From an uncultured delta proteobacterium (GTDB taxonomy: Bacteria > Desulfobacterota > Binatia > HRBIN30), in contig CAVSQF010000022.1 in assembly GCA_963729835.1 (NCBI GenBank), positions 296,150-360,149 of the forward strand: 64,000 nt of DNA, in the 5' to 3' direction. Shown one piece after another: positions 24,805 through 57,025 of the stretch (within the stretch, counting starts at the first letter, position 1; the number at the start of each line of letters is the position of its first letter). The position numbers and the translations under genes were made by a program. A model generated the notes under the pieces. The model saw nothing but the letters and a program-made list of their open reading frames with translations, was not told the DNA's origin and made no database searches.

Positions 24805-25800
<996 letters not shown>

Positions 25801-25885
25801 GGATTAACGCTGCGGACAAATGGAAAATGGAGAATGGAAAACGGAAAACCCGCGAACGAGAGACCCATTTTCCATTTTTCGTTCT

Positions 25886-26875
25886 TCATTTCTTCTGCTC
25901 TGACCACCCTGGTTCTGACGCCCGGATGCAGGCGGCCGCGTGGTCCGGCTCCACCTCGTCTAGCAGCGGATCGGTTACGGCGCAGCGGTCAACGGCGCTG
26001 GGGCAGCGGTCACGGAAGTGGCAGCCGGACGGCAGGCGCCACAAGTCAGGCACGATACCGGGGATCGCCTCGAGACGTCGTGCCTTCTCCGCCCCGACCT
26101 TAGGGATGCAGCGCAGCAAGCCGCGCGTGTACGGGTGCAGCGGCCGCGCGAAAATGGCGCTGACGGATGCGTGTTCGACGATGCGGCCGGCGTACATGAT
26201 CGCCACCTCATCCGCCCGCTCAGCCACGATACCCAAGTCGTGGGTGACGAGGATAAGCGCCATCCCCAAGCGGCGCTGCAGCCCCGCCAACAGGTCGAGG
26301 ATCTGCGCCTGAATGGTCACGTCGAGTGCGGTGGTCGGTTCGTCGGCAATCAGCAAACGCGGATGACAGGACAACGCCATGGCAATCATCACCCGCTGGC
26401 GCATGCCGCCGCTGAGCTGGTGCGGGTACTCGTCCACCCGGCGCTCGGGCTCAGGGATCTCCACCAGCGCCAGCATTTCGATCGCCTTCTTGCGTGCCGC
26501 GCGCCGCGTCAGCCCTTGGTGCAAGCGCACGGCCTCGGCGATCTGGTTGCCGATCGTAAAGACCGGATTCAAGGAGCTCATCGGTTCTTGAAAGATCATG
26601 GCGATGGCATTGCCGCGGATGCGCCGCATGTCGGCCTCGCGGAGCGCCAGCAGATTGCGGCCGTCAAAACGGATCTCGCCGCCCACCACGCGACCGGAGG
26701 GTGGCGTCAGGCGTAGGATCGACAGCGCCGTCATTGTCTTCCCACAACCTGACTCGCCGACCAGTCCAAGCGTGTGGCCGGGATCGAGAGTGAGACTGAT
26801 CCCGTCCACCGCACGCGCTTCGCCCTGCGCGGCAAAGAAGCTGGTGTGCAGGTCGCGCACTTCGAGCAATGCCAC
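25886..26875 (-). CDS. oligopeptide/dipeptide ABC transporter ATP-binding protein (OppD/DppD-like)
   Basis: RBS AGGAAA + GTG start ([14 protein letters not shown]). [28 protein letters not shown]. Upstream part of track ORF is artefact. Confidence 0.8.
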
Positions 26876-27081
26876 ACAGGCTTTCCTAGCAGCCTGGCGG
26901 CAAAATCGGAAGGTGTGCCGGCGTGCTGACGCGCGTCGTCTCCAATCTTTTCTGGCGCTCTGTCCGCGGCCGTGCTCCAATGAGGCATGTATTCTTCGCG
27001 CCGGCCAATTCCGGCGAGCGCCGTGCCCCGACGGATCGTGCCGTCGACCGGCGGGCCACACCGAGTTAAGGAGTGCAACTG

Positions 27082-28122
27082 ATGCGGTCATCACTAGTTG
27101 TGATCAACGGTCCGATTGATTCCCGTGCGCGGCGCAGCCGATCGACGCTCGCATGGCTTTGGGTGGTGAGTGTCGCGGTGCTTCTGGGCTTGCTTCCGGC
27201 GAGCCACTCGCAGGCGGCGGTCGACATCGCAGCGCAGGAAGCCTTTCTGCGCACCGCGCCGGGCGGCGGCGATGAAGTGACCACACCGGCGGTGGGCCAG
27301 ACCGTCTACTTCCACGTCGGCTTTCAGCTGACGGGGCCCGCGGGCTCGGTGGCGGTGAGCCAGCGTGCGTTGCTCGATGGGGCTGAGTTCTGCGCCTTCA
27401 CCGAGGACACCACTCCCGGCGATTGGTTCTCCTGGTGTCTCGACGGCTGGACGGCCACGGCGGGGACGCACACGCTGCAATGGGACCTCGACTACACGAA
27501 CACGGTGGCGGAAACCAACGAGAACAACAACTCGGTCTCCACGACGTGGACGAGCGGCGGGCCGACATCGACGCCGACGCCGGGCAGCGGAGTGGATATC
27601 GCGGCGCAGCGCGCGTTTCTGCGCACCGCGCCGGGCGGCGGCGATGAAGTGACCACACCGGCGGTGGGCCAGACCGTCTACTTCCATGTCGGCTTTCAAT
27701 TGACGGGGGCCACGGGCTCGCTGGCAATCAGTGGGCGAGCGCGATTGGATGGCGGCGACTTCTGCACGTTCACCTCGGACATCACAACCGGCACCTGGAC
27801 GGCGTGGTGCACCGGGGGCTGGACGGCGACCGCGGGGACGCACACCCTGCAGTGGGACCTCGACTACACGAACCAGGTGGCGGAAACGAACGAGAACAAC
27901 AACTCGGCCGCCACGACGTGGACGAGCGGCGGGCCGACCTGCGTTGGCGATTGCAATCACAGCGGCGAGGTCACTGTGGGCGAGCTCGTCACCATGGTGA
28001 ACATCGCCTTGGGCAGCGCGGCGTTATCCGCCTGCCCGGCCGGTGACGCCGATGGCAGCGGCACCATCGAGATCAACGAGATCATCGCCGCCGTGAACAA
28101 CGCCCTGGACGGTTGCCCGTGA
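27082..28122 (+). CDS. secreted protein with two tandem CARDB-like domains and C-terminal dockerin-like double repeat
   Basis: SD AAGGAG. Signal peptide. Two ~125-aa repeats ([38 protein letters not shown]...[22 protein letters not shown]). C-term [25 protein letters not shown]...[21 protein letters not shown]. Confidence 0.7.
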
Positions 28123-28203
28123 GAACAGACCCCGCTCCGAGATCCGTGCAGGGGTGGTTTTGCGACCGAAATCGGTGTAAACAGATGTGCCACCGAGGAT
28201 ATT

Positions 28204-29193
28204 ATGGCGTGCACACCCTTTCTCACGAGTTGGCTGGCTGCCCTTCTTCTTTTGATGCTGAGCGCGGGGGCGACTCGTGCCCAAGCGGGGGCGGGGAACG
28301 TTAACTGCGACCTCCCGGGACTGATCGCTGCACTCTTCGGCACGCCCGACGCGTGTGCCGCCGACGTGAACGCCGACGGCGCGGTCAGCGCGGCGGACCT
28401 GACCGCCTTGGAAATCGATCTCTTCGTGCCCACGCCTCCGAGCGCAACGCCAAGCTCTACCCCGACGCACGTTGCCACGCCGACCTTCACCCGGACGCTC
28501 GTGCCGTCCGTAACGCCCACCGCAACGCGATCACCCACTGTGACACGCGCCCCGTCCAACACCCCGACGGCCACGGCAACCATTCCGATCTCCGTCGGCC
28601 CCATGATCACGTTCTTCGGTTTGACGTGGGCAGACAATTCCCCGATGACGCCGGATTCGACCGACGCGCAAGGCAACCCCGTGTATACACTGGGGCTTGG
28701 GCAAGTGGCAGGATTCTTCATCGTCGTCGAGGCGGAGGCAGGTACGAGCGGGCTCCTGCCGTCGGTAAATCCGACCAATAACTTAGTGGGGATGCCAAAC
28801 CTTCAAATTGAGGCCAATCGTGATTTGGGCAATGGCAGCACCGCGGTGTGCGATAACGGGCCGCTATCTGAAGATCTCCCGCTCGGCGGCGTACCGGGAA
28901 TCAATCCGCCGAGCTTCGATGCGGGCGTCAGCGCGACCGTCGATGCGCTCAACGACTTCGCCTGCCGCTTCGATGTTGGGGCGACGAGCGGTAGTGTCGC
29001 GTGCACGATTCCGGACCCTGACAGCGGGGCATTCGGGTTCATGAACGCGAACAGCGCGATCCAGTTCTGCACAGCAGGAGCGCTGCCGTTGCAAATGGCC
29101 TTCCAGTCGGGAGACACCTTGCTCACCGTGCGACTGCAGGACACGGCTGGCGACGTGGGTGTCCCGCGACAAATCGTCGTGCGTGTGCAGTGA
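28204..29193 (+). CDS. secreted protein with N-terminal dockerin-like motif and Thr/Pro-rich linker
   Basis: Signal peptide MACTPFLTSWLAALLLLMLSAGATRA, DVNADGAVSAADLTALEIDLF, then PT-rich linker. Confidence 0.6.
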   Translation: MACTPFLTSWLAALLLLMLSAGATRAQAGAGNVNCDLPGLIAALFGTPDACAADVNADGAVSAADLTALEIDLFVPTPPSATPSSTPTHVATPTFTRTLVPSVTPTATRSPTVTRAPSNTPTATATIPISVGPMITFFGLTWADNSPMTPDSTDAQGNPVYTLGLGQVAGFFIVVEAEAGTSGLLPSVNPTNNLVGMPNLQIEANRDLGNGSTAVCDNGPLSEDLPLGGVPGINPPSFDAGVSATVDALNDFACRFDVGATSGSVACTIPDPDSGAFGFMNANSAIQFCTAGALPLQMAFQSGDTLLTVRLQDTAGDVGVPRQIVVRVQ

Positions 29194-29198
29194 GGCAG

Positions 29199-29272
29199 GT
29201 TGCTAGGTTGTTATGTTTCTGAGGTTGTTAGGTGTTTAACATAACAACCCGACAACCTAGCAACTCACAACC
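29199..29272. repeat. palindromic REP-like element, copy A (GTTGCTAGGTTGTTA...CAACCTAGCAAC)
   Basis: 12-bp perfect terminal inverted repeat with internal GTTGTTAGG/CCTAACAAC units. Lies between convergent genes. A related copy is at 37871-37950. Confidence 0.7.
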
Positions 29273-29279
29273 TATTTCC

Positions 29280-30605
29280 TCATCGGATTGACCGTACCTC
29301 TACCTGTAGCGGCACGTCCCGTGCGGCCATGAAGGCGCGCGGATCGAGTCCCGGCGGCAGCGCGTAGCTGACGGACATGAGTTGGTGCCGCCCGGCACCG
29401 ACGTGTCCCCATTGGTCCAGCTGATAGCCGATCCCCGGCTCTTCCCCCGGCGCTGATTCCGGCGGGTGTGCCTGCCCGGTCTCGCGGTAGAAGAGCCGGC
29501 GGCGGGTAGTGGCGAGCGACGGGCTGACTTGCAGGGCGTTGAGCAACGTGATGCCCGGGCCCGTGAGCGCGAACCAAGAGTCCGGCTGGCTGTTCAACGC
29601 CACCTTCTGTCCGGTCATCACGCCGTCGATCGGAATCGGCTGCGGCAGGCTGGGCACCAGGACCGACCAACCGCGCAGGTCGCGGAAGTCCAGAACCGCG
29701 CGGATCATGATGTCTGTGAAGAAATACGTCGGCGGGAAGTTCAGACGCAACGCCACCGGCAGCTCCGCGAAGTCGCGGTAAAAATAGGTGTACGATCCGA
29801 AGGTCGGGGAGTGGATGCCCCACCCGAGGCGAATCCACTGATGCTGGTTGCGGATGACCCGGATCGGGCCCTGGCGCCACCCGGCGAACTCGGTCGACAG
29901 GTCCGCCTCGCTGCGGGAGAGATGAATCAGTCCGAAGAGGAAGGTCGCGGTGGCACGCACCTTGAGCCGGTCGAGCAAGTTGCGCTCGCCGTCGTGCGCC
30001 GCACCAGCCACCGCCAGGTAATCGGGGATGCCGCCGCTGAACCCGAGCCGTACGCGTGCGCCAGCGATGCGATCGTGCGCGGCGTCGTAGCGGACGTACG
30101 CTGCAGGTGAGCGCGGCGCGGCGCCCGCGAAGGCCAGCAAGTAGACCCACCGGTCCGAGCCGGTGAGCGGATCATGGAGACGGATCTCGGCGGCCGGCGC
30201 CACGTCGGGCAGACCCGCCCGGCCGGCGCGCTCGCCGGCATCGGCGGCCATGAAGAGCATCTCCCCGTTGTCGTCGAGGATTGCGGGCCGCTCCTCCGGG
30301 CTTGCTCCGGGGCTGTGGTCGAGCACCCAGTGCCCCGCGGCATCTTGCTCATCGGCTTGGAAAGGAATCGGCTGACAGGCGGAGCGGCCACAGGCGTACA
30401 GTGCGAGCTGCGCAATCGGCCGCCCTCCGAATGGCGACAGATGCTGCCCGTCGAGGTGCACGACATCGCCGAACCGCACTTCCTGAGCGCCCGCCGGTAC
30501 GGCGCACCGCAAGACCAAAAAGCCAAACAAGATCAGGAATCGGGCCCAGGGAAGCTCGAAACGCGGCCAGCGGGTGAGTGTGTCGGTGCAGAATCTGCTT
30601 GACAT
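29280..30605 (-). CDS. secreted hypothetical protein
   Basis: 441-aa ORF, signal-peptide-like N-terminus (WARFLILFGFLVLRCAVPAGAQE), protein-like composition; no recognisable domain. Confidence 0.55.
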   Translation of the reverse strand: MSSRFCTDTLTRWPRFELPWARFLILFGFLVLRCAVPAGAQEVRFGDVVHLDGQHLSPFGGRPIAQLALYACGRSACQPIPFQADEQDAAGHWVLDHSPGASPEERPAILDDNGEMLFMAADAGERAGRAGLPDVAPAAEIRLHDPLTGSDRWVYLLAFAGAAPRSPAAYVRYDAAHDRIAGARVRLGFSGGIPDYLAVAGAAHDGERNLLDRLKVRATATFLFGLIHLSRSEADLSTEFAGWRQGPIRVIRNQHQWIRLGWGIHSPTFGSYTYFYRDFAELPVALRLNFPPTYFFTDIMIRAVLDFRDLRGWSVLVPSLPQPIPIDGVMTGQKVALNSQPDSWFALTGPGITLLNALQVSPSLATTRRRLFYRETGQAHPPESAPGEEPGIGYQLDQWGHVGAGRHQLMSVSYALPPGLDPRAFMAARDVPLQVEVRSIR

Positions 30606-30709
30606 TCAGAGCAGGCCTCACATATGGGAACGCTGCCAAACCGACTATAGCTCGTGTACGGCGTGGGCGCAGTGGAATGTGAGCGGAAAGCTAAAGAGGA
30701 GGTCCCCCG

Positions 30710-32687
30710 ATGGTACGAACTGGGCTGAAGGCGTGGGTGGTCGCGGGCGTGGTGGTGGTATCGCTGCTCGGATTGCGAGCCGGCAGCAGCGCGATCTCGC
30801 TCGACAGCGACGGCGACATGAAGTTGGGCGTGCGGACGTACGTCAACGCCCGAGTTGGGACGGAGGATACGCATGACGGTGTGATGACGACGCCCGTCAC
30901 CGATCCAACTACGGGCCAGTCCGTGACGACCTCGACCTCCGCGACCTTCCCACACTCGAGTCGCCGGCCATCTGCGGCAGAATCGTTTCTTCATCGAAGT
31001 CGAGCTGAACCACGACCTCGATCGGCTTGCGAATCAAGGCGTCGGCCCCTTGAGCCTCCTCAAAGAGTTGCCGTTCAAAGTGAAGGGGCTGGCGTACCAC
31101 TTCACGTTTCGCGGCGAGGGAGACGGTCTGTACGACTGGGGACCTTGGGAGTACAGCACGGCACAGCCGATCCAGGAATTGAGAACCACATCCCCCCCCA
31201 GCTCACTTGTCTACCGCCAAGGTCCCGGTGGGGCCCCCTTAGACTGCACCACTGACCCGCGCTGTGGCCGCCAAACTTTCATCGACGTCGCGGCAGAACG
31301 GGAGAAAATCCGCCGCCTCGGCACAGACCGGGAACGGCTGTTCCAAGCCTACGTCGAAGGGGATGTCGGGAATTTATTCGTGCGGGTGGGGCGGCAAATC
31401 CTCGCCTGGGGTGAAACGGACGCCTTCCGACTCCTCGATCAGATCAACCCGACCGACAGCAGCTTCGGAGGATTCCTCGTTCCCCTTGACGAACGGCGCC
31501 TCCCACTCGATATGCTCCTGGCCAACTACTACCTCGGTGATTACGGGCCGTTCACGGAGATGCATCTGGAAGGCTATGCGGCCATTGACAATAGCGTTTC
31601 GTACTATCCGGGCGGCAGCAGTGTCTCGCCGTGGGGGCTCCCGAGCGACACGGCACCGGGGAACGAGGTGGAGCACTTCCTCATCCGGCCTGCCCGGACC
31701 ATCAACAACACACGCGGCGGATTCCAGTTGAAGTTCAACGTCCTGGACGCCACGTTTGGCGTCGCGCATTATTACACGCACCCTGACATCGAGGCCCTGG
31801 ACTCCCACACAAATCCGTGGGACCCTAATGGCAGCGGCGCGAGGGGTTTGCTCACCGCCTTCGATGAGGGCCTCCCATGCCCGATTATGAGCGGCAACAG
31901 CTCACAGAGCGTGGTGATAGGTGAGGATTTCTCCAACCGTCATTGCGGTTATATGGTACACATGTATCACACGGCGCCGAAGATGCAGGTGACCGGCGCC
32001 TCGACAACGTTTGCTCTGCCGCAGTATTACAGCGTGTTTCGGAGTGAGTTCGCGTATTTCAAAGACGAGGCCCACTTCAGGCAGCGCCAGCTCGACCCCT
32101 TTATATACAATAACCCTTTCAACACCCCCGACCCTTTCCACCCAGGGAAGAACTACCCCCATCTTGCCACGGGAGGCCGGGATCTCGGAGACTCGCTCAA
32201 TGCCATGGTGGGCCTCGATAACAACCAGTGGATCCGGTTTCTGAACCCGAATCAAACCTTTTTCATCTCGACGCAGTTCTTCTACAAACACATTCTCGAC
32301 GCGGGGGACCACAACATCTGGAGCTTGGGCAAGAACGGTCAGCGGCTCCTCAACCCGAATCGCGAAGTCCTTCCACTCTATTTGACTGAGACGCCTAATG
32401 GAGGGCAGGCGGAACCTGTCTTCATCACCAACCCGGCGGACTCCTACCTGCAAACCCTGATGATCGGCACCGATTACCGGAGCGGTACAATCTCCCCCAG
32501 CCTGACGTTCTTCTACGACTGGGGCGGCGCTTTCGTTTATCAGCCGGCGATCACGTTCACCCATGATCCCTTCCGCTTCGCGATCGATTACAGCATAATC
32601 GACGCGCATATCTACAAGGGTGGCAGCGGCGTCAGCTTGCTCAAGGATCGGGACAACGTCCAGTTCCGCTTCGAGTATGTGATCTGA
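30710..32687 (+). CDS. DUF1302 family outer-membrane protein, interrupted by an apparent frameshift near 30930-30960
   Basis: Frame 1 gives signal peptide (MVRTGLKAWVVAGVVVVSLLGLRAGSSA). Frame 2 from ~30927 gives the DUF1302 body (...LFVRVGRQILAWGETDAFRLLDQINPTD...), ending FRFEYVI. No start codon with signal peptide exists in frame 2. Confidence 0.6.
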
Positions 32688-32958
32688 TTGGTGCGTCGTG
32701 CGTCCGCCGGGCAGGGGCAGCGACGGAATGCGCTCGCGGGTGATCCGTAGTGCATTCCAGTGAGTCGCGGTCGTGTCCGTCGACGCGTACAGACCCAAAG
32801 GCGACAGGGGGGTGAAGTCTGCTGAAAGACCGGGACAACGTGCAGTTCCGTCTGGAATATGTGATTTGATTTGTGGTAAATGCTGCGGGTCGCCTCCGGG
32901 GCACAGCGACCGCGTCGTGACTTTGCGTCAGAAGATCAGAAGAGAAGGGGAAGCGCGG

Positions 32959-33966
32959 GTGAGACATCTAGTGTGGGCTGCCACCGTGCTCTTGGCGAGT
33001 GCGAGGGCCGTACTGGCGGCCGAAACAGTACCGGCCGCACAGCTGCGGCAGAATTTGCTGTCGAGCTGCTTCGTCGATCTCAAGGAAGGGTGGGTCACCG
33101 CCGATCTCGGCCGTGTCTTCCATACCGTCGATGGGGCCAAGACGTGGGAGAAGCTGGCCGCGCGAGACCAGCGGTCATTCGTGGCGCTGAGTTGCCCGGA
33201 CAAGGGCCATCTGTGGGCCGCCGGGCAGGCGGGACGGATCGGGTACTCCACCGATGGCGCCCGTACCTGGACGATACAAACGAGCGGCACCGATCGCCAG
33301 CTTCTCGACATCGGGTTCGTGAATACGCAACGCGGCCTTGCCATCGGGGATTTCGGCACGATCCTGCGCACCGACGATGGTGGGGCAACCTGGACGAAAA
33401 TTCCGCTGCCCCGGGATATCAAGCTGCCGCCGGATGTTGCCGAGGTCGTCGATCCCGGCGATGTGGTTCTGTATGCGTTGGCTTTTCTGACCCCGGAGCA
33501 TGTGTGGGCGGTTGGTGAATTCGGGGTGATTGTGGAATCCACTGACGGGGGGCTGACGTGGCACTCGCAAGACAGCCGGACCCAAACGAGCCTCTTGGGG
33601 GTCTCTTTTGCCGATGAGCAACGCGGCTGGGCCGTTGGGCTCGAATCGACGTTGATCGCGACAACCGACGGCGGTACGACCTGGCGTAAACAGCAAATCG
33701 AAACGCCCAAGGGCTTTTCGCTCGCTCTGTATAACGTCGGGGTGCGCGGCAGCTACGGGTGGGCGATCGGCAATAGTGGATTCCTGCTTTCCAGCAAGGA
33801 TGCCGGGACGACCTGGCAGCTGGCCAAGGTCCCGGTAGAGATGGGCAGCAGCTGGTTTCGCGGTCTCTGGCTATTTCCGGACGGCCGTGGTTTTCTTGTC
33901 GGCTCACGCGGTCTGGTGCTCGCCACCGATCGCGACAGCTTCACACCAATGAAGCAGCTGTTCTGA
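32959..33966 (+). CDS. Ycf48-like BNR-repeat beta-propeller protein
   Basis: GTG start after RBS GAAGGGGA; signal peptide. Repeated T/S-x-D-G-G-x-T-W units (TVDGAKTW, STDGARTW, TDDGGATW, STDGGLTW, TTDGGTTW, KDAGTTW). Confidence 0.8.
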   Translation: MRHLVWAATVLLASARAVLAAETVPAAQLRQNLLSSCFVDLKEGWVTADLGRVFHTVDGAKTWEKLAARDQRSFVALSCPDKGHLWAAGQAGRIGYSTDGARTWTIQTSGTDRQLLDIGFVNTQRGLAIGDFGTILRTDDGGATWTKIPLPRDIKLPPDVAEVVDPGDVVLYALAFLTPEHVWAVGEFGVIVESTDGGLTWHSQDSRTQTSLLGVSFADEQRGWAVGLESTLIATTDGGTTWRKQQIETPKGFSLALYNVGVRGSYGWAIGNSGFLLSSKDAGTTWQLAKVPVEMGSSWFRGLWLFPDGRGFLVGSRGLVLATDRDSFTPMKQLF

Positions 33967-33994
33967 TGGGGTTGTTCAAGGAGGTCCCGAGGAA

Positions 33995-36517
33995 ATGATT
34001 CCGCGGCGATGGATTGAAGCCTACCTCCATTTCTTGCTGCGCAATCGTCGCTCGGTTGCGGTCGTCGTGGCGTTGATGACGCTGTTCTTCGCGGCGGCCC
34101 TCCGGAACACTCGGCTGCACACGGACTTCTTCGATTTCTATCCGCGCCGGCACCCGTACATCCAGTTCTACAACGAGTTCCGCAAGATGTTCGGGACCGC
34201 CAACATCATGAGCGTGATCTTGGAGGTCAAGCACGGCGACATCTACAACCCGGCAACCCTCCAGAAGCTCGATCGCATCACCAAGTTCATGATCAACACC
34301 AAGGGAGTGGTGCCGTACCAAATTCTGTCGATCGCGCACCCGGCGGTGAACAGCGCCACGGTCGTGCAGGGTGCCGTGCAGATCGTCCCGGTGTTCTACC
34401 CCGGCGTCCCGCAAACGCAGGAGGATGCGGAGCGCGTACGTTTTGCGGTGTACGCCAATCCCAACATCCGTGGCATCTACGTTTCTCACGACGATACGGC
34501 GGCGGTCGTGAACGTCGGCTTCTGGGAAGAGGCGCTCGACTTCCAATACCTCGATAAGCGCATGATGGAACTCAAACATGCCGAGGAGGACGCGAATCAC
34601 ACCATCTACATTACCGGGTTTCCGTGGCTGTACACCTCTGTGTTGCAGTACGCCTACGAGCTGCCGCTCGTCTTCGGCTTTACGCTGTTCGCGCTGGCTT
34701 TCCTGTTGTTCACCTATTTTCGCACCTGGACGGGGATCTGGGTGCCGATATTCTCGGGCGTCCTATCCGGGATCTGGGGCCTGGCGATCGCCGCCCTGCT
34801 GGGATTCAACGTCGATCCACTCGTGTTAGTGATCCCGATCTTCCTAACGGCACGTACGCTCAGCCATTCAGTGCAATCCATGGACCGCTACCACGAGGAG
34901 TACTACCGCTTGCAGGACAAACACCAGGCGATCGTGGTCTCGTACTCCCATCTTTTCCCGCCGGCCATTGCTTCCATCTTTGCCGACGGCATGGCGCTGC
35001 TGATCGTTGCCGTCGGGCCGATCCCGTTGATCCAGAAAGTCGCGATCTTCGCGAGCTTCTGGATCGTGTCTATGTTCATCAGCGTCGTGACGCTCCATCC
35101 GATCATTCTGTCGTACATCAATCCGCCGCATCATGCGGAGGCGCATGCCCAAGAAGGGCCGGACCGCGTGCACATCGGGGTCGCGACGGCGATACTGGCA
35201 GTGGCGGTCGCTGCGGCGATTACGGCCACGGAGTTGGCGCTCATACCGGGCCGCGGGGCGGTGCTTGCCGTCTGCCCGATCATCGCCTGGTACTGGTTCA
35301 CCTATTCGGAGCGGATTTATCCCGCCTTCACCGAGCTCGTCATCAACGCCAGCGTCGGGTATCGACGTTGGCTCGTGATTGCGCTGACGATTGCGCTCTA
35401 TTTATTGCTGCCCGTTTGGGGGTGGACCTTGAAGGTCGGGGATATGACGCCGGGTGCCGCGCTGCTATTTCCCGATCACCCCTACAACGTTGCCTACCGG
35501 AAACTGAACGACAAATTCCTCGGTGGCAGCCAGCTCATCGTCATCGCGGACACGATGAAGCCCGATGGGGTGAAAGGCTTCGCCGCCTTGACGGCCATGG
35601 AGGAGTTTGCCGATCACATGGCGACGGCGCAGGGCGCCAGCGGGTCCATCACCATCGTCGACATCGTGAAGCAGCTCGAGCGCCTGCAACACGAAGGCGA
35701 TCCGAAATGGGGCTTGGTGCCGGTCAATCCCAAGGAGATCGGGCAGGTCATCTACAGCTTCCAGGCAAGAGCCGCCGTGACCTCGCTGAATCTGTTCATG
35801 GATGCCAGCGCGCGCTACGGCTCGATCATCACGCTGTTTCGCGAGCACTCGCACGACACCATCATGCACTCGATTGCGCTCGCCAAGGCGTTCGCGAACC
35901 AGTATACGGGGGGCGAAGTCCAGTTCCGTTTCGCGGGCGGTCTGTTCGGCGTCTTGGCTGCCGTCAACGAGGCGGTGGAGAACTCGTACTGGATTAACCT
36001 CGGGATGATCTTCTTCATCGTCGCCTTCTGCTTGTACCTCACGTACGGGTCGTGGTACGCAGCGGGAATCCTGATGATTCCAGTGGTGCTGTCGCAATTG
36101 GCTGCAGAAGCCCTGATGGTGCTGATGCACATCGATTTGAATGTAAACTCCCTACCGATCGCGGCCGCCGGTGCCGGGGTGGGTGTCGACTACGGCATTT
36201 ATCATTTCAGCCGGATGGTGGATGCCTACGATGAAGTCGGCAAGCTCGACGAGGCGGTGGACTATGCCACGGCGACCACCGGCAAGGCGATTATTTTCAC
36301 CGCCTCCACCATGATGGCGGGCACCATCTTCTTCTGGCTCTCGAACCTGAAGTTCCAGGCCGAAATGGGGTTCTTGCTGGCATTGCTGATGCTCTTCAAT
36401 ACATTCGGAGGCTTGGTTGTGGTTCCGGCCTTCGTGAAAGTCCTCCGGCCTTCCTTCCTGACGGGCCGCAAACCGAAGACCGCCGCGCCGGACATCCGAG
36501 CCGCGGCGGCAAGCTGA
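33995..36517 (+). CDS. RND-superfamily exporter (MMPL/HpnN-like, 12 TM with two periplasmic loops)
   Basis: 840 aa. Two homologous halves, each with a TM bundle (e.g. GIWGLAIAALLGFNVDPLVLVIPIFLTARTLSHSVQ and GILMIPVVLSQLAAEALMVLMHIDLNVNS). Confidence 0.85.
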   Translation: MIPRRWIEAYLHFLLRNRRSVAVVVALMTLFFAAALRNTRLHTDFFDFYPRRHPYIQFYNEFRKMFGTANIMSVILEVKHGDIYNPATLQKLDRITKFMINTKGVVPYQILSIAHPAVNSATVVQGAVQIVPVFYPGVPQTQEDAERVRFAVYANPNIRGIYVSHDDTAAVVNVGFWEEALDFQYLDKRMMELKHAEEDANHTIYITGFPWLYTSVLQYAYELPLVFGFTLFALAFLLFTYFRTWTGIWVPIFSGVLSGIWGLAIAALLGFNVDPLVLVIPIFLTARTLSHSVQSMDRYHEEYYRLQDKHQAIVVSYSHLFPPAIASIFADGMALLIVAVGPIPLIQKVAIFASFWIVSMFISVVTLHPIILSYINPPHHAEAHAQEGPDRVHIGVATAILAVAVAAAITATELALIPGRGAVLAVCPIIAWYWFTYSERIYPAFTELVINASVGYRRWLVIALTIALYLLLPVWGWTLKVGDMTPGAALLFPDHPYNVAYRKLNDKFLGGSQLIVIADTMKPDGVKGFAALTAMEEFADHMATAQGASGSITIVDIVKQLERLQHEGDPKWGLVPVNPKEIGQVIYSFQARAAVTSLNLFMDASARYGSIITLFREHSHDTIMHSIALAKAFANQYTGGEVQFRFAGGLFGVLAAVNEAVENSYWINLGMIFFIVAFCLYLTYGSWYAAGILMIPVVLSQLAAEALMVLMHIDLNVNSLPIAAAGAGVGVDYGIYHFSRMVDAYDEVGKLDEAVDYATATTGKAIIFTASTMMAGTIFFWLSNLKFQAEMGFLLALLMLFNTFGGLVVVPAFVKVLRPSFLTGRKPKTAAPDIRAAAAS

Positions 36518-36555
36518 GACACGCGTACGATTAAGTGATGAGGAGGTTTTCGATT

Positions 36556-37866
36556 ATGATGTTCGCAAGACGCGCCCGTATGCATTGGGTCGTGGGCACT
36601 CTAGCTTTGGCGGCCATGTTCGTTGCCGGCTCAGCCCGCGCCGAGGAAGCCAGCAAGGACAAACCCTGGGTCCTCGACAGCAACAACTGGCAGCTCGGTA
36701 AGGATCTGCTGCCGGAGCCAGTACTCAACCGCGTGAAAAGCGGCGAATACCATTTCAAGGTCGTCCCGGTTGACCCAGATAAATTCAAGCAAAACTACTC
36801 CAAGAAGTTCTGGGAGGCGAGTGAGGCGAATGCCGGCAAGTACGGCATCGACACGGCCACCTGCGGCTTGAAAGACCTCAAGACCGGCAAGATTCCGGAC
36901 TTCTACTTCGGCTACCCGTTCCCGAAGATCGACCCGAAAGATAAGGACGCGGGCTGTGAGATGGCCTGGAATTTCATGGCCTCCAGTGAGCAGATCAACG
37001 GGTTCGGGGCAACGTTTACCTTGAACGGCATCGACGCGACAGGCGAGTTCAAGCGCATCAAACTCTGGATGCACATCCTTACCTTCATCGGCCGGTCGGC
37101 CGGCCCGATTCCCAACCCTGAGCACCTGCGTCACACGAGTGTGTCGAGCGTGACCGAGCCACAGGACGTCGACGGCGTCGGCGGCCTGACCAAAACCCCG
37201 AATGACTGGACCTCGGAGGATCAGTTTTGGGCGTACGTGCCGTCCACGCGTCGCGTGCGCCGCGTCAATGCCGCCAGCCGCTCCGACCCCGTGAACGGCC
37301 TGGACATCTTCGGTGACGACGTGAACTGTTACTCCGGCAAGACCGAGTTATACAAGTGGAAGCTGGTTGGTGAAGGCACCGTCCTGGCTGGCGTGCTCAG
37401 TCCGGAGCCGATCATACAAAAGCAGGTCAGCCCAACGCGGTGGGACGTTCCCATCCCGTACTTCAAAGGCGTCTACGAAACGGCGGGCGCGAAGGGAGCG
37501 CCGTGGCTCATCGTGGACAACCTGGTCATGATCCCGCGCCCGGTCTGGATTCTCGAGGCCCAGGCCGATGACCCGTACTACAACTTCGGGAAGGTCATCA
37601 TCTACATGGATAAGGACATGTACCGCATGTACTGGAAGCTGGTGCACAACCGCGCCGGTGAGTACTTCTATAATGCCATGTGCGCCTGGCACTTTTCGAG
37701 GTCCGAGGATGGGACGTTTACGGCCCCGGCACCGAACATGGTCGTGGGCGTGAACGACAAAACCAACCGCGCGGCCATCGGCGGACGCTACAGCTCACAG
37801 TTCATCGAGAATAAGTTCGACGACGACTACTTCACCCTGCACCACCTGACGCATATGTCTGACTGA
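36556..37866 (+). CDS. DUF1329 family periplasmic protein (LolA-like)
   Basis: SD AGGAGG 9 nt before ATG 36556, signal peptide. 443-aa range; blocks YFGYPFP, WAYVPSTRRVRR, YNFGKVIIYMDKDMYRMYWKLVHNRAGEYFYN. Confidence 0.75.
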   Translation: MMFARRARMHWVVGTLALAAMFVAGSARAEEASKDKPWVLDSNNWQLGKDLLPEPVLNRVKSGEYHFKVVPVDPDKFKQNYSKKFWEASEANAGKYGIDTATCGLKDLKTGKIPDFYFGYPFPKIDPKDKDAGCEMAWNFMASSEQINGFGATFTLNGIDATGEFKRIKLWMHILTFIGRSAGPIPNPEHLRHTSVSSVTEPQDVDGVGGLTKTPNDWTSEDQFWAYVPSTRRVRRVNAASRSDPVNGLDIFGDDVNCYSGKTELYKWKLVGEGTVLAGVLSPEPIIQKQVSPTRWDVPIPYFKGVYETAGAKGAPWLIVDNLVMIPRPVWILEAQADDPYYNFGKVIIYMDKDMYRMYWKLVHNRAGEYFYNAMCAWHFSRSEDGTFTAPAPNMVVGVNDKTNRAAIGGRYSSQFIENKFDDDYFTLHHLTHMSD

Positions 37867-37870
37867 AGCA

Positions 37871-37950
37871 GTTGCTAGGGTGTTAGGTTGTTATGTTGTT
37901 AGGTGTTTTGACTTCACAACGTAACAACCTAACAGCCAACAACCTAGTCA
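37871..37950. repeat. palindromic REP-like element, copy B (same family as 29199-29272)
   Basis: Shares GTTGCTAGG, GTTGTTATGTT, GTTGTTAGGTGTTT and CAACCTAG blocks with copy A. Between convergent gene ends. Confidence 0.7.
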
Positions 37951-37951
37951 C

Positions 37952-38284
37952 TCAGCCGTGCGGCAATTCCGTCCGCAGCCAGCGGGCGATCCAGCCGTCC
38001 TGGCCTTCGGTTTCCTGGCGGGCAATCTCTTTCAAATCGCCTTGGTCCAACCACATACCGTAGCAGCTCGGACACTCGTTGACGGAGACTTTGCGGAGCG
38101 TACGTTGGCGTAAGGGCTCGCCGCACTTCGGGCAAAGCATATCGGTTCCTTGCTTGCCCTCTTCCTCGCGGCGGCGCATCTCTTTCACCAATTTCCGATC
38201 GCGTTCGGCGAAAAACTGATCTTCCCGGCCGCGTTCCGCGTCGCGCAGCTTGTCGCCGAAGCGATCCTTGTTATCATGCGTCAT
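37952..38284 (-). CDS. zinc-ribbon domain protein (zf-TFIIB-like)
   Basis: RBS GGGAG. MTHDNKDRFGDKLRDAERGREDQFFAERDRKLVKEMRRREE...CPKCGEPL...CPSCYGMWLDQGD. The rest of track ORF 37952..39316 is artefact. Confidence 0.6.
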   Translation of the reverse strand: MTHDNKDRFGDKLRDAERGREDQFFAERDRKLVKEMRRREEEGKQGTDMLCPKCGEPLRQRTLRKVSVNECPSCYGMWLDQGDLKEIARQETEGQDGWIARWLRTELPHG

Positions 38285-38431
38285 CTTGTGCTCCCTCATC
38301 CCGCCTGCACCGCGAAAGTTAAGGTAGCCATCGCGCCTCGGGTTTGTCAATCTGGCTTCTGCTGGCTCCTGACTCCTGAATCCTGCTAGCGTGTGCGCGG
38401 AGAACCGCATCGCCCGGGCCGAGGAGCACCT

Positions 38432-39115
38432 GTGATTCCGTTGCGTGACACCATTCCATCGCGCCACTTCCCGTTCATCAATCTGGCGCTGATTGCCGTC
38501 AATTGCCTCACCTTCTTGTACGAGCTGCGCCTCGGCCACCGCTTGCCGTGGCTGATCGGTGTATTCGGTCTGGTCCCTGCACATTTTCATCTTTTGGCGC
38601 CGGCAAGCATGCTGCCGCTGTTCACCAGCATGTTTCTGCACGGCGGATGGATGCACCTGCTCGGCAACATGCTCTTCTTGTACATCTTCGGTGACAATGT
38701 CGAAGACCGCCTGGGACATGCCCGCTACCTGCTGTTCTATCTTCTGAGTGGCGCGGCGGCGGGGGTGGCACAAGTGTACAGCGCTGGCCACACGAACATG
38801 CCCATGATTGGGGCGAGCGGTGCCATCGCCGGCGTCTCCGGAGCCTATTTCCTGTTCTTCCCCACGGCCCGGGTGGTGACCCTGGTTCCGATCTTCTTCT
38901 TCTTTCAGATCGTCGAGATACCGGCGGTGATTTTCCTGCTGCTGTGGTTCCTGCTGCAGGTGTTTTATGGCCTGGCTACGGTTTCGGTGGTGGGCCGGGC
39001 GGTGGGCGGCGTCGCCTGGTGGGCGCACGTCGCCGGCTTTCTCTTCGGCGCGGTCGCCGGGCCGCTGCTGGCCTGGCAACCGCGCCGCGCTCACGCCCGC
39101 AGCGTGCGCTGGTAA
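38432..39115 (+). CDS. rhomboid-family intramembrane serine protease
   Basis: RBS GAGGAG + GTG. GASGAIAGV (Ser), HVAGFLFGAVAG (His), WMHLLGNMLFLYIFG. Confidence 0.85.
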   Translation: MIPLRDTIPSRHFPFINLALIAVNCLTFLYELRLGHRLPWLIGVFGLVPAHFHLLAPASMLPLFTSMFLHGGWMHLLGNMLFLYIFGDNVEDRLGHARYLLFYLLSGAAAGVAQVYSAGHTNMPMIGASGAIAGVSGAYFLFFPTARVVTLVPIFFFFQIVEIPAVIFLLLWFLLQVFYGLATVSVVGRAVGGVAWWAHVAGFLFGAVAGPLLAWQPRRAHARSVRW

Positions 39116-39149
39116 CCGCCCGTTCACCCATGTACGGTACTCAGTGGCA

Positions 39150-40148
39150 ATGATCGACCTGCGGGATTTCGTGTGTGCCGTTGAAGAGATTGTAATGCGC
39201 CACAATCTGCACCGGCCGGGCGCGTATGCGCGCTGGCTCTGGCAGGGTGATGCCGGCGGCCGCGAGCTGGGGATCAATCCATACGGCTGCGCCGATGCCG
39301 CAAACATCTTATACACGATCGGTTGCTTTCCAGATCCTGCCGCGCGTGCGCAATGGGTGGCGGTGCTGCAGGGATTTCAAGAGGCCGACGGCGGGCTGTT
39401 TCGCGAGGGCACCCACCACCCAATTCATACGACGGCACATGTGGTGGCAGCGTTGGAATTGTTCGATGCCCGGCCGCGGTTTCCACTCGCTGCACTGGAA
39501 ACCCTTCGGCAGAAAGATCCGCTCGTCGCCTTTCTGGAGAATCTGGACTGGACCTGGAATCCGTGGGGCGCCGCACATCAAGGCGCCGGAGTTTACGCAG
39601 CGTTACGGCTTGCCGCCTCGCTGCCAGCCGAATGGGAAGACTGGTATTTCGATTGGCTGTGGCACGAGGCGGATCCCGAGACGGGGCTCTGGCGCCGAGG
39701 CGCGGTGGCTGCCGGCGGCGATCCCCTGTTGTTCCATCACCTCGCCGGCGCGTTTCACTACCTGTTCAACCTCGAATACGCGCGCCGCCCGCTGCGCTAC
39801 CCGGAGCGCATGGTGGACTCGTGCCTGCGGCTCTATCGCGAAGCACTCTTTTCCCCTTTGGGCCGGATGGTCGGCTTCGCCGAGGTGGATTGGGTGTACT
39901 GCCTCAATCGGAGCCTCCGCCAGTGCGGCCACCGGTTCGGAGAGTCACGTCAGGCGTTGGCCGACCTCGCCGCCGTCTATACTGATTACCTTTCGAGCCT
40001 CGACCCGAGAACAGATGAGGGCCTGAACGACTTACACCAGCTGTTTGGTGTGGTCTGCGCCCTCGCGGAGCTTCAGCAGGCGGTGCCCGGATTGCTCCGA
40101 ACGGAGCGCCCCCTTCGTCTGGTGCTCGATCGCCGGCCGTTCATCTGA
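39150..40148 (+). CDS. hypothetical protein with prenyltransferase/squalene-oxidase-like Q-x-x-D-G-G repeats
   Basis: 333 aa; QEADGGLF and QGAGVYAAL-type repeats, W-rich alpha/alpha-toroid-like composition. Confidence 0.45.
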   Translation: MIDLRDFVCAVEEIVMRHNLHRPGAYARWLWQGDAGGRELGINPYGCADAANILYTIGCFPDPAARAQWVAVLQGFQEADGGLFREGTHHPIHTTAHVVAALELFDARPRFPLAALETLRQKDPLVAFLENLDWTWNPWGAAHQGAGVYAALRLAASLPAEWEDWYFDWLWHEADPETGLWRRGAVAAGGDPLLFHHLAGAFHYLFNLEYARRPLRYPERMVDSCLRLYREALFSPLGRMVGFAEVDWVYCLNRSLRQCGHRFGESRQALADLAAVYTDYLSSLDPRTDEGLNDLHQLFGVVCALAELQQAVPGLLRTERPLRLVLDRRPFI

Positions 40149-40191
40149 TTCGCGGCCGGGATTGGCCTGCCACCATGAACCGTACGGTAGA

Positions 40192-40262
40192 GGTTCCCCT
40201 CCTTACGAAGGAGGGGTCAGGGGAGGTTTGGAATGCCGCGATGCTTAACCTCCCCCTCGCCT
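40192..40262. repeat. GGTTCCCCTCCTTAC(C/G)AAGGAGGGGTCAGGGGAGGTTTG repeat, copy 1
   Basis: Palindromic core CCCCTCCTT-ACGA-AGGAGGGG followed by TCAGGGGAGG. A partial inverted partner CCTCCCCCTCGCC lies 20 nt downstream. Second copy at 42961-43045. Confidence 0.65.
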
Positions 40263-40351
40263 GGAAAGATCGACGGTCTTCCTTACTCAGAAGTGATGCG
40301 CCCCTTTTCGTTCACAGCGCGGGGCGCACCACCTCTTTTTCCGCGGTGCGG

Positions 40352-41425
40352 TTACAGTGCCCAAAAGACGAAATCAGACGTCACACGCCAGTCGAAGATG
40401 GATTGAGTATTGCTGCCGATGGGCAATTCGGCAACAACGCCGAAATCAATGCCGCCCTGCTGGCCGAGGACATCGAGGTTGTCGAGGATACGCCAGCGCC
40501 AGCCGAGGCCCAATGTGGCCAGGTCCGAGCCACCCGCGCTCGGTGCACCCAGATTGAAGAAGTCGAATCCCTCCTGGTCAAGTTTGAGGCTCTGGTCACC
40601 TGCCAATGCCCGGAGGGTATCCTCGAGCGGGCGCAGGCGGCTACCACCTTGGAGTACGTGGATCCAGTTCAACTCAACCAAGGGGTAGATGTTCCAGGCC
40701 GTTTTGTAGTCGGCATGCACCGAGAGGTCGTAGAAACTCGAATCAATTCCGCTTAGCGCCAACCGCGGGCCGGTGTACGCCAGGAGATGGAGATTCTCGT
40801 GTCCCCACACACCGGATAGGAACACGTTCAACATCCCATTGCCGCGCTCGTTCAGATCGAGGTCTTTGAGACCAGGATTGAGCGCCGAGAGATTATGGGT
40901 CCGGAACACTGACCCCTGCAGCGCTTGGGGTTCACCGGTGGGAGTCTCATAGCGGAGACCGGCGGTCAGCAGCGCCGGCAGCGTCAGGTCGCGGAAGAAG
41001 TTGTACTTGAGTCCGGCCGCAACGTCGGCATACCCGCTTCCCTCTTTGACAACATTGGCGACATCATGCTCGGGGTCCAGCCACACATAGCTGTCCTTGG
41101 TGGCGATGAAAGCCAGGCGATCGGTCAGCTTGAGGCGGGCCTGCAGGGAAAGGATCTGCGCGTGGCCGCCCGGCTGCTGCAGCCCATTCAACCCCAAGCT
41201 GTTGAGGGTGTGCGTTATTCTCGGGTCGCTGACTACATCGAGAAAATGATCGCCGATGCTGTGGTAGATATAGATGGGTCGCGCGTCGCTCTCGATGCGC
41301 GCGTCCTCGAAATTCGTCGGATTCGAAACCGGGCTGATGAACCCCGCGAAGGGATCTTCCCCCGCGATGGCCTCAGCCGACCATAGCGCGATGCCCAGCA
41401 GTAGCCCGTACACAATCCGCTTCAT
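40352..41425 (-). CDS. putative outer-membrane beta-barrel protein
   Basis: Signal peptide MKRIVYGLLLGIALWSAEAIA, alternating amphipathic strands, C-terminal ...DFVFWAL aromatic terminus. Confidence 0.55.
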   Translation of the reverse strand: MKRIVYGLLLGIALWSAEAIAGEDPFAGFISPVSNPTNFEDARIESDARPIYIYHSIGDHFLDVVSDPRITHTLNSLGLNGLQQPGGHAQILSLQARLKLTDRLAFIATKDSYVWLDPEHDVANVVKEGSGYADVAAGLKYNFFRDLTLPALLTAGLRYETPTGEPQALQGSVFRTHNLSALNPGLKDLDLNERGNGMLNVFLSGVWGHENLHLLAYTGPRLALSGIDSSFYDLSVHADYKTAWNIYPLVELNWIHVLQGGSRLRPLEDTLRALAGDQSLKLDQEGFDFFNLGAPSAGGSDLATLGLGWRWRILDNLDVLGQQGGIDFGVVAELPIGSNTQSIFDWRVTSDFVFWAL

Positions 41426-41887
41426 CTGCTCGCTCCTCCCTTGTGGCGGGGGTTGTGCCGTGCGCTGCCGCCACTTCGTCAAGACAAAACGCACGGCGTT
41501 GCCGCCCTGTGCGACCGGGCAGTGGCGTAGCAAATGGCCTACCAGGGCCCCTCATTGCCGCGTGGCGCCGCGCGGGACCGAAACCTTCGCTGATATGAGA
41601 AGGGCTACAGAGCAGTAAAAGGAATTCCGGCAAGGAAGTCTACTATCGCGTATAAGCCTCGCTGACCAAGAGGACGAGGGCGGCGATCAAGTTAGGGCTG
41701 GTGCACCCGGCACGTGGGCGCGGAGCCACGATGCAGGCGATTCGCTTGCGCGTGCAGTGTGCGACTGACGATACACAGAAGCTGGTCTCATGTACTAGAG
41801 ACTTTACCAACATCTATACAGTGCACACTGACAGGGTGCCACGCGCACCGAGACTGGATACCTTCGGGACCCGACACGCGGCGCGAG

Positions 41888-42868
41888 TTACGTGGCTTGA
41901 TAGAGCGTTCGCTCGCTCCCCTCCTCGCGCGTCACCTTGCCGCCCGCCCGCAGGTATTCCAAATGCGCCAACGTCTCGAAGGTTGCCGGGAACTGCACCG
42001 CGAGCGGGCTCTCGATGTCGAAGCCGAATACCAAACTCGCGACCTCGTAAGCGGTGCGGGCGCGGTGTCTGACGAGGTCGAATACCTCCTGCAGGCGGTA
42101 CTGGTGATGGTGGAGGATTTGATTGATGCGGTGGCGGTGCTCCGTGTATACGCCGCCATGCGCCGGCAAGACGAGGTCGACGGCCAGCGGCTGCACTTTT
42201 CGCAGCGAGTCGAGGAAATCCGCCAACGGATTGGCCGGGCCGTACGGGTACACGCCGACATGCGGCGTGATCTTCGGCAGCAAGTGGTCGCCGGCGAGCA
42301 GCACGCGTTGCCGGCGCAGGTACAGCACGCAGTGGCCGGGCGTGTGCCCGGGGGTGGTGATCACCTCAATTTCGAGATCCCCGACGCGAATGACTTCACC
42401 ATCCTCCATAAAGTGATCCGGCGTGGCGGGAGCATAGAGGCTGCCCCACATCTCTCCCGGCGAGGGCAGGCTGACGACATGGGCGATGGGAAACCCGTGT
42501 CGGATGACGAACGGCACCGCCGTTTGGCTGCGCTGCCCCGGCGCGAACCACTGGGCACTCTCGTAGTCGCGGCGGTGGATGTACACCTGCGCCCCGCAGC
42601 GATCCTTGTACGTCTGCGTGGCTCCGAAGTGGTCGGGATGGTGGTGGGTGCAGACGATGGTGCGCACCTGCTCCGCCGTGCAACCCACCTGCTTCAATGC
42701 GGCCTCGAACGTCGCGCAACTGTCGGCGCTGTTCACGCCCGTGTCCACCAGCACCCATTCCCGCCCGCCACGCAGCAGGGTGACGTTGACGCTGGTGGGG
42801 CGCGTCGGCAGCGGCAAGCGCACGACGAGGACGCCGGGCGCTACCTCACGCACTTTGGCATCGCTCAC
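41888..42868 (-). CDS. MBL-fold metallo-hydrolase
   Basis: THHHPDHFG (HxHxDH), DTGV, TPGHTPGH. Start uncertain (GTG ~42868 after GGGAGA). The 5' part of track ORF (to 43087) is encoded by a repeat hairpin and judged non-coding. Confidence 0.75.
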   Translation of the reverse strand: MSDAKVREVAPGVLVVRLPLPTRPTSVNVTLLRGGREWVLVDTGVNSADSCATFEAALKQVGCTAEQVRTIVCTHHHPDHFGATQTYKDRCGAQVYIHRRDYESAQWFAPGQRSQTAVPFVIRHGFPIAHVVSLPSPGEMWGSLYAPATPDHFMEDGEVIRVGDLEIEVITTPGHTPGHCVLYLRRQRVLLAGDHLLPKITPHVGVYPYGPANPLADFLDSLRKVQPLAVDLVLPAHGGVYTEHRHRINQILHHHQYRLQEVFDLVRHRARTAYEVASLVFGFDIESPLAVQFPATFETLAHLEYLRAGGKVTREEGSERTLYQAT

Positions 42869-42960
42869 CGGCAGATCTCCCGGACCCAAGGACTTGAGTT
42901 TCGCGAAATATGCCTCGACGTAATTAGGGCCACCGATTGACGAGCTGGCTCCACGTGAAA

Positions 42961-43045
42961 GGGTTCCCCTCCTTACCAAGGAGGGGTCAGGGGAGGTTTG
43001 AGAAGGCCGCTCTACCTCCCCCTGACCCCCTCCTTCGAAAGCAGG
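42961..43045. repeat. GGTTCCCCTCCTTAC... repeat, copy 2, arranged as ~85-bp perfect-ish hairpin
   Basis: GGGTTCCCCTCCTTACCAAGGAGGGGTCAGGGGAGG ... CCTCCCCCTGACCCCCTCCTTCGAAAGCAGGGGGAAC: the two arms are reverse complements. Confidence 0.65.
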
Positions 43046-43079
43046 GGGAACAGCGACGGCTCCTGTTGCGAGCGCCGCG

Positions 43080-43292
43080 TCACTCATGCAGTCGCTCCTG
43101 CACCGTGAACGACAGCGCGATCTTCACCCGCCAGTGTGACACGGCACCGTGCTCGACCGTTGCGCTGATGTCGAGGACGCGGAGGTGGCGGATGCTTTCG
43201 ATCGTCACCGCCGCGCGGGAGACGGCGATGTGCACCGCCTCCTCGATGCTGTTCGCAGACGTGCCCGTCAACTCGATGGTTTTCTCGACCAT
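43080..43292 (-). CDS. dodecin family flavin-binding protein
   Basis: 70 aa; KTIELTGTSANSIEEAVHIAVSRAAVTIESIRHLRVLDISATVEHGAVSHWRVKIALSF matches the dodecin fold consensus. Confidence 0.8.
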   Translation of the reverse strand: MVEKTIELTGTSANSIEEAVHIAVSRAAVTIESIRHLRVLDISATVEHGAVSHWRVKIALSFTVQERLHE

Positions 43293-43414
43293 AGCAGTCC
43301 TCCTGCCGGCATATGGCCTATGGCGTATGGCTTATGGCCAGAGCGCACCGCACGCGCGTGCCCGTTGGTGGCTGGGTTCTGGCCATATGCCACCAGCTAT
43401 AAGCTATACGCCAT

Positions 43415-57021: not shown

Positions 57022-57025
57022 CGTT

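Follow-up and report, generated by a model that had tools for sequence, protein, structure and literature searches.

The closest described architecture to the elements reported here is that of the GGGAATC heptamer arrays of Xanthomonas, which often come as convergent inverted pairs (in Xcc 70 such cases, in Xac 75) that are capable of forming stem-loops (PMC4692102). The TAACTGA heptamer repeats form tandem arrays across the Beggiatoaceae, Cyanobacteria and Bacteroidetes, with no evident mechanism of transfer (PMC4679880). The function of tandem short-unit repeats has been described as poorly worked out, and none is established. REP/BIME elements and REPINs are extragenic palindromes at gene 3′ ends, which are proposed to affect transcription or mRNA stability (PMC3116915, PMC3337134), and the Rickettsia palindromic elements (RPEs) are inserted in frame in protein genes, where they add a peptide segment (PMC10969869). 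As a kind, intergenic palindromic repeats of tandem short units are known; the octamer version described below is new, and its dimer, GTTGTTAGGTTGTTAGG, was not found in the literature searched.

The 64-kb stretch of DNA analysed here (hereafter called the window) contains two homologous hairpins of 75–81 nt, which are assigned to neither strand. Copy 1 (29199..29274) is defined by its sequence, unit matches, a period-8 array and its fold, and copy 2 (37871..37951) by its sequence, an inverted repeat, its fold and the period-8 arrays located by tandem-repeat detection at 37871-37904 and 37916-37946. Each arm is composed of about four tandem octamers (GTTGCTAG, GGTGTTAG, GTTGTTAT and GTTGTTAG), and the opposite arm is the reverse-complement array; either strand of the element reads 5′-(GTTGTTAG)n-loop-(CTAACAAC)n-3′. 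In copy 2, the left arm (37871-37902) comprises the units GTTGCTAG, GGTGTTAG, GTTGTTAT and GTTGTTAG, and is followed by the loop region (~37903-37914) and the right arm (37915-37951), which reads CACAAC, GTAACAAC, CTAACAGC, CAACAAC and CTAGTCAC. Copy 1 follows the plan of copy 2 with one degenerate unit: its left arm (29199-29233) consists of GTTGCTAG, GTTGTTAT, a degenerate 9-mer and GTTGTTAG, its loop lies at ~29234-29239, and its right arm (29240-29271) consists of CATAACAAC, CCGACAAC, CTAGCAAC and TCACAAC. The blocks that the sequence-only reading had found common to the two copies (GTTGCTAGG, GTTGTTATGTT, GTTGTTAGGTGTTT, AACAACC and CAACCTAG) are indeed present in both, in the same order. 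With the variant units in the same order, common descent of the two copies is a better explanation than convergence. The elements end at unit boundaries (AG/GTTGTT ... AACAAC/CT, with the slashes marking the boundaries), and no conserved flank lies outside them. The sequence of copy 2 is identical on an independent Logan contig.

The proposed long hairpins are borne out on both strands of both copies, with z-scores from -4.3 to -6.0. Copy 1 folds with -34.0 kcal/mol on the + strand and -33.5 on the - strand (z = -4.5 and -4.3), copy 2 folds with -40.0 and -36.0 kcal/mol, respectively (z = -6.0 and -4.8), and none of 200 shuffles reached the native fold energy in either copy on either strand. 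In the GTTGTTAG hairpins, the 5′ arm is rich in G+T and the 3′ arm is rich in A+C, and therefore neither arm pairs with itself. Moreover, since 8 is not a multiple of 3, three consecutive canonical units carry TAG in all three frames and in both directions. The elements stand out from the rest of the window: GTTGTTAGG, at one mismatch or less, occurs 14 times, against an expectation of 5.7 +/- 2.2, and 11 of the 14 occurrences lie inside the two elements, while the family pattern matches exactly two sites, copies 1 and 2 (shuffle expectation, 0.00).

Both copies fill the spacers between convergent + and - stops, as had been reported. Copy 1 begins 5 nt past the TGA (29191-29193) of a hypothetical protein gene on the + strand (28252..29193; start codon uncertain; supported by the ORF list and a codon-usage gene call, with no Pfam match). 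On its other side lies the - strand gene of a conserved hypothetical protein of 441 aa (29280..30605; ORF list and codon-usage call; 60% identical to its orthologue in L003), the stop of which (29280-29282) is separated by 8 nt from the last repeat unit of copy 1 and by 5 nt from the mapped end of the element. Copy 2 begins 4 nt past the TGA (37864-37866) of a DUF1329/LolA-like gene on the + strand (36556..37866; Pfam, and the gene call on the identical contig L001), which is the last gene in a DUF1302-BNR-MMPL-DUF1329 cluster. The right end of copy 2 abuts, with a gap of 0 nt, the stop (37952-37954) of a Zn_ribbon_TFIIB gene of 110 aa on the - strand (37952..38284; Pfam, and the gene call L001:5402-5734).

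In both copies, a stable stem-loop therefore lies directly 3′ of a stop codon and a few nucleotides from two convergent stops, as in bidirectional intrinsic terminators, and the position is interchangeable with that of such terminators in relatives, as described below. In contrast to intrinsic terminators, the stem is far longer than is typical and has a G+C content of about 43%, as compared to 63% for the genome, and neither window copy has a U-tract immediately 3′ of the stem. The flanks of both copies contain no T-tract after and no A-tract before the element, and a T-rich tail or an A-rich leader each occurs in just 2 of 75 family members, which extends the lack of a U-tract, already observed for the two copies, to nearly all of the family. 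A scan of 25001-45000 with the canonical terminator consensus made no call at either element. Rfam at the gathering thresholds gave no match in the window or in four related loci, the permissive Rfam scans returned only sub-threshold, microRNA-like hairpin matches, and the tRNA/tmRNA scan found neither kind of gene.

The MMPL protein encoded between the two copies places the window in a Candidatus Binatia MAG, on a source contig of 441,720 bp. How widely is the GTTGTTAG hairpin distributed? The strict family pattern, which is specific for copies 1 and 2 in the window, was run on one genome per species, a set that does not include the source MAG. It matched 73 elements at 72 loci in 21 species-representative genomes, against a hand-estimated chance expectation of about 2. 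Besides the two copies in the 64 kb of the window, the strict matches number up to 17 in one related Binatia MAG, and a long-read MAG titled Chthonomonadaceae has 11. Most matches are from Binatia, including MAGs labelled delta proteobacterium, and a MAG labelled Margulisiibacteriota that carries the element has the imuB-dnaE2 synteny common to Binatia. The other matched titles are Thermoanaerobaculia and other Acidobacteriota, Cytophagales, Saprospiraceae and Abditibacteriaceae. Taking the taxonomy from the record titles only, the matched genomes span Binatia, Armatimonadota, Acidobacteriota and Bacteroidota, and the G+C contents of the hosts (0.54-0.58 versus 0.62-0.71) agree with distinct genomes behind these titles. 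The family pattern had 0 matches in viral contigs, and carriage of the hairpins by phages was rejected on this ground.

According to crude gene calls, 39 elements lie between co-directional, 21 between convergent and 4 between divergent genes, 6 are inside long ORFs, and the elements are usually located 5-30 nt beyond a stop. Among the non-targeted family-like arrays, 12 of 19 have a reverse-complement partner within 90 nt, and 7 are solo. The number of units also varies: a run of about 21 units is present at L030:3900-4073, and in the MAG CAVXGR01 the hairpin makes up the centre of a ~175-nt element that is bounded by 13-bp terminal inverted repeats (GGCTTTGCCCAAC and GTTGGGCAAAGCC), the ten aligned copies of which have 2, 4 or 8 units, with the left arm alone being variable. 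Such MITE-like elements of ~175 nt were observed at the L007-L077 loci of CAVXGR01 (e.g., L058, L059 and L072), often with adjoining GGTGTTG arrays. The pattern and unit matches in other genomes uphold the earlier assignment of both window copies to one homologous, dispersed palindromic family, and we are highly confident that they are members of a dispersed tandem-octamer fold-back family. What the sequence-only reading did not contain is that the arms are built from tandem repeats, that the unit occurs under titles from several phyla and that, as described below, relatives carry in-frame insertions.

These features allow a comparison with the known systems. The elements share with the Xanthomonas GGGAATC and cyanobacterial heptamer (STRR-type) repeats the intergenic arrays of 7-9-nt units, with period-8 arrays present on both arms in the convergent orientation, and the unit number varies here as well (2, 4 and 8 in CAVXGR01; ~21 in L030). 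However, the octamer GTTGTTAG is not G-rich like GGGAATC and therefore lacks quadruplex potential, the hosts are Binatia and other uncultured lineages, and copies are also found in frame within genes. In addition, while the array length of the Xanthomonas and STRR-type repeats differs between related genomes and the repeat type at each site is kept, switching of the unit with maintained pairing is documented here. Like the TAACTGA repeats, a single short unit recurs as arrays in distant phyla, but the TAACTGA repeats are nearly all direct arrays upstream of start codons, with one inverted case, whereas the GTTGTTAG elements are mostly inverted pairs downstream of stops. Similarly, the elements resemble REP/BIME in being multi-copy, extragenic and concentrated 3′ of genes, in convergent or co-directional spacers, but each is one long tandem-unit fold-back rather than a 20-40-nt REP or a doublet, and their hosts have titles from several phyla.

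The site of copy 2 can be compared among relatives with MMPL proteins that are 75-86% identical, as these have kept both the DUF1302-BNR-MMPL-DUF1329 cluster and its convergent Zn-ribbon neighbour. We compared the DUF1329/Zn-ribbon junction across six lineages (the window, L002, L003, L081, L078 and L079). The junction is occupied by the GTTGTTAG hairpin in the window, and by unrelated U-tract-less hairpins with short-period arms in L002, L003 and L081, the repeats of which are ATCGTG-like, TCGTGAG-like and GGTSTCA-like. At the same junction, L078 and L079 have canonical bidirectional intrinsic terminators, composed of an A-tract, a G+C stem and a T-tract. Therefore, this junction is a termination site, and the tandem-arm hairpins are positionally interchangeable with terminators. 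This equivalence is the main, circumstantial support for a role of the window hairpins in termination or at RNA ends, for which we see about even odds from the sequence comparisons. The earlier suggestion of a bidirectional element acting on transcription or RNA stability gains to the same, circumstantial extent, from a junction that holds either terminators or U-tract-less hairpins in relatives. At the site orthologous to copy 1, L003 and L002 have a different gene context and lack a comparable hairpin.

Three observations weigh against the terminator role. First, a hairpin of the same architecture (25813..25891, assigned to neither strand), built from 4-5 copies of the heptamer AAATGGA and their reverse complement, has two co-directional ABC-ATPase genes as its neighbours, which seem to be transcribed together. 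From this placement, a neutral role or one in RNA stability is more plausible than full termination, and therefore not every member of the class is a full terminator. Second, GTTGTTAG hairpins are tolerated inside coding sequences. Finally, the sense and antisense folding energies in co-directional contexts have no bias (n = 53, p = 0.31). Selection at the RNA level is therefore not demonstrated. Whether transcription can end without a U-tract is also under debate in other high-GC bacteria.

Other repeats in the window have related layouts. A 25-base pattern of the AAATGGA hairpin matched at least 120 metagenome stretches, with host contigs ranging from 37 to 66% G+C, and this unit therefore also represents a widespread family. 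Another hairpin of the same architecture, with 4.6 copies of the heptamer GGCNTAT and their reverse complement (43308..43412, assigned to neither strand), lies between the hydrolase and dodecin genes, both on the - strand. It folds with -61 kcal/mol, and has the stop of the alpha/beta-hydrolase gene on one side and the ribosome-binding site of the dodecin gene on the other. A second family, at 40186-40261 and 42963-43051, consists of G+C-rich nested hairpins with GGTTCCCCTCCTTAC(G/C)AAGGAGGGGTCAGGGGAGGTTTG (39 nt, 97% identical), one of which is at a junction of convergent genes, while the genes around the other are co-directional. Three direct repeats of ~95-135 nt (57011-57136, 59276-59410 and 61003-61106), spaced 1.7-2.3 kb apart, separate small cassettes, the products of which are a GmrSD/HNH nuclease, a DUF4160 protein and a PIN-domain protein, in a layout like that of a cassette array; Rfam gave no match for the three repeats. 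A CARDB-domain gene contains a 372-bp tandem duplication at 27226-27938 (1.9 copies, 83% identity).

In relatives, the hairpins have also entered genes. The imuB and dnaE2 genes of Binatia and a second large ORF contain hairpins in frame within the coding sequence, in one constant frame in which the left arm is translated as VVRLLGCY and the right arm as NNLTTNNLTT, and the in-frame TAG is replaced by TAC, TAT or TGG. Such in-frame insertions, of the kind known from RPEs, are found in relatives only, and the window has no coding insertion. Among 120 DnaE2 homologues (1024-1362 aa), the insertions cluster at a few sites, which are filled in some orthologues and empty in others, including the more distant ones, and some orthologues retain decaying remnants of in-frame insertions. 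In the DNA of five further genomes, all of these insertions are hairpins whose arms consist of tandem units, and their folding energies range from -24 to -76 kcal/mol. The units at the insertions differ: they are GTTGTTAG, GGGGTTAG/C, GCGGTTAC and, in one case, the unrelated heptamer AGTCGAT, which forms the hairpin at dnaE2 site C of one genome and suggests that the sites can also be re-occupied.

At dnaE2 site A, the alignment of the left arms is free of gaps; the orthologues have their fourth unit and the beginning of the loop in common and differ in the outer units. Among seven orthologues, 12 of the 38 left-arm columns changed on both sides of the pair, a count that is built on the predicted fold of each sequence itself and hence favours pairing. 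In a control, the cognate arms had a mean of -43 kcal/mol, as compared to -30 for non-cognate arms, and the cognate arm ranked first in 5 of 7 cases. The co-varying columns and the cognate-arm control together indicate that the pairing is kept while the word and the encoded peptide change.

These in-gene copies resemble RPEs and MITEs, as short palindromes in frame in genes with a carrier element bearing terminal inverted repeats in one relative, and the arms of the window elements are themselves inverted repeats, like those of MITEs. In contrast to MITEs and RPEs, neither an autonomous partner element among the 56 window ORFs scanned nor a target-site duplication at either window copy was found, and no pair of empty and filled sites was seen for the window copies. 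To our knowledge, RPEs are not built from tandem short units. RPEs are also longer, at ~150 bp, and tandem repeats are not mentioned in PMC10969869.

Several further features of the imuB-dnaE2 loci were observed. At one site, inserts of 10 aa or more are present in 84 of the 120 DnaE2 homologues (L051:2859-6695, - strand; homologues P0122-P0174), and many of these inserts are conserved stretches of ~130-148 aa, which are bracketed by hairpin arms and resemble translated non-coding sequence. In three Binatia contigs, a small gene lies directly upstream of dnaE2 (L084:1-304, L085:1-292 and L086:1-308); it belongs to the 23S_rRNA_IVP family in one contig and to the PDDEXK_3 family in two. In L082, a gene with an IMS (imuB-type) domain occupies the position directly upstream of dnaE2. 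The conservation of ORFs on both strands raised the question of whether these loci are rRNA operons; this was rejected, as Rfam found no rRNA and the loci are protein-coding.

We propose that the two copies belong to a MITE/REP-like, non-coding palindromic family, the mode of mobilisation of which we infer, and that they occupy the place of, and probably serve as, bidirectional terminators or 3′-end hairpins devoid of a U-tract. We assign this reading a probability of roughly 0.55.

Might the hairpins instead be purely selfish or neutral, mobile or slippage-prone junk that resides at gene 3′ ends and in tolerant loops without any host function? The in-frame insertions in imuB and dnaE2, which are decaying to remnants in some orthologues, would be expected of such a repeat, and so would the 7 of 19 non-targeted arrays that lack a partner arm, the expansion of one arm to 8 or ~21 units, and the absence of sense/antisense asymmetry. 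We nevertheless consider this explanation rather unlikely, as it is opposed by the arms that stay complementary at an orthologous site despite the changes in the unit and the peptide, and by the canonical terminators at the same DUF1329/Zn-ribbon junction in other lineages. The strong depletion of the elements from divergent, promoter-side spacers also counts against it, although insertion tolerance could explain this depletion as well.

In a classical REP/REPIN system, the hairpins would be acted upon by a RAYT (a Y1 HUH transposase), the single gene for which would lie elsewhere in the genome, and the sequence-only reading had considered them as possible targets of such a REP-associated transposase. 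This link found no support: a Pfam scan of 56 window ORFs detected no Y1_Tnp, RAYT or other transposase, and both copies lack the GTAG head and the REP doublet structure, having tandem-octamer arms of 30-35 nt instead. Moreover, REPIN-RAYT pairs are described as mostly inherited vertically and persistent within lineages, whereas the octamer GTTGTTAG occurs under titles from several phyla. The extragenic, palindromic and multi-copy character of the elements and their 3′-end bias do agree with a REP/REPIN identity, and the co-evolution of each RAYT with its cognate hairpins could produce the unit variants favoured in different genomes. Taken with the points against it, this identity is improbable.

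A local origin would require no transposition: a terminator palindrome would acquire a slippage-expanded motif, which would be mirrored by intrastrand template switching. The many different units across sites and lineages, the differences in unit number between copies, and the common fourth unit and loop start with differing outer units at dnaE2 site A could all arise in this manner. It would have to produce, however, the same order of variant units at unrelated sites of the window, the same GTTGTTAG octamer at what we count as tens of sites per genome (17 at most with the strict pattern) in 21 genomes, the copy in CAVXGR01 that lies within an element bounded by terminal inverted repeats, and the unrelated AGTCGAT heptamer hairpin at dnaE2 site C of one genome, and we regard it as very improbable.

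An attC site has RYYYAAC at its 5′ end and GTTRRRY at its 3′ end, forms an imperfect palindrome and is located next to an integron integrase. The hypothesis of a DNA-level array for a protein (a nucleoid-associated protein, a recombinase or an uptake factor), in which the palindrome is incidental, could draw on the regular 8-nt spacing, the conserved GTTAG core and a resemblance of GTTAGGT and ACCTAAC to the integron core-site consensus (GTTRRRY and RYYYAAC), but it is scarcely credible, because the unit changes between genomes with the pairing kept, which points to structure over a fixed word, the two motifs are in the reverse of the attC order on both strands, and no integrase or recombinase gene was found near the elements among the window ORFs scanned. 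An integron attC site itself was rejected for the same motif order, opposite to the attC consensus on both strands, and the lack of an integrase.

Returning to the reading of the hairpins as a palindromic family in the place of terminators, we propose the following mechanism. The body of the element is a fold-back, in which about four tandem GTTGTTAG octamers are followed by a short loop and the reverse-complement array. A transcript entering from either side would read 5′-(GUUGUUAG)n-loop-(CUAACAAC)n-3′ and would fold into a hairpin of ~30 bp, in either direction because the element is self-reverse-complementary by design. The family may spread or be renewed within genomes, by means in which no transposase has been seen, and the arrays would change their unit number by slippage. 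Copies would then persist where they are harmless or useful, either just 3′ of genes or in tolerant protein loops with an open frame. The most likely effect of the window copies would be to block, in both directions and independently of a U-tract, transcription, 3′-to-5′ exonucleases, or both.

A broader version of this proposal, which is tentative and on balance doubtful, is that tandem fold-backs of 7-8-nt units constitute a class spanning several phyla, as yet undescribed as such, which resides at fixed sites, where the unit is rewritten while the arms are kept complementary, and which serves as U-tract-independent bidirectional terminators. Such rewriting of the unit at a fixed site would imply a new renewal mechanism, which might be a hairpin-targeting transposase or recombinase, gene conversion among copies, or hairpin-templated repair.

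Binatia and the other host lineages are uncultured. If the hairpins terminate or protect transcripts without a U-tract, then terminator prediction in such genomes would need a different model. Tandem-unit fold-backs look abundant, with at least 120 metagenome matches for the AAATGGA unit, yet only scattered reports of heptamer repeats exist. For annotation, the hairpin insertions inflate protein lengths, as in the DnaE2 homologues examined, which are 1024-1362 aa long. The orthologous sites, including those in dnaE2, provide a natural experiment, in which selection on the structure of the nucleic acid can be told apart from that on its sequence.
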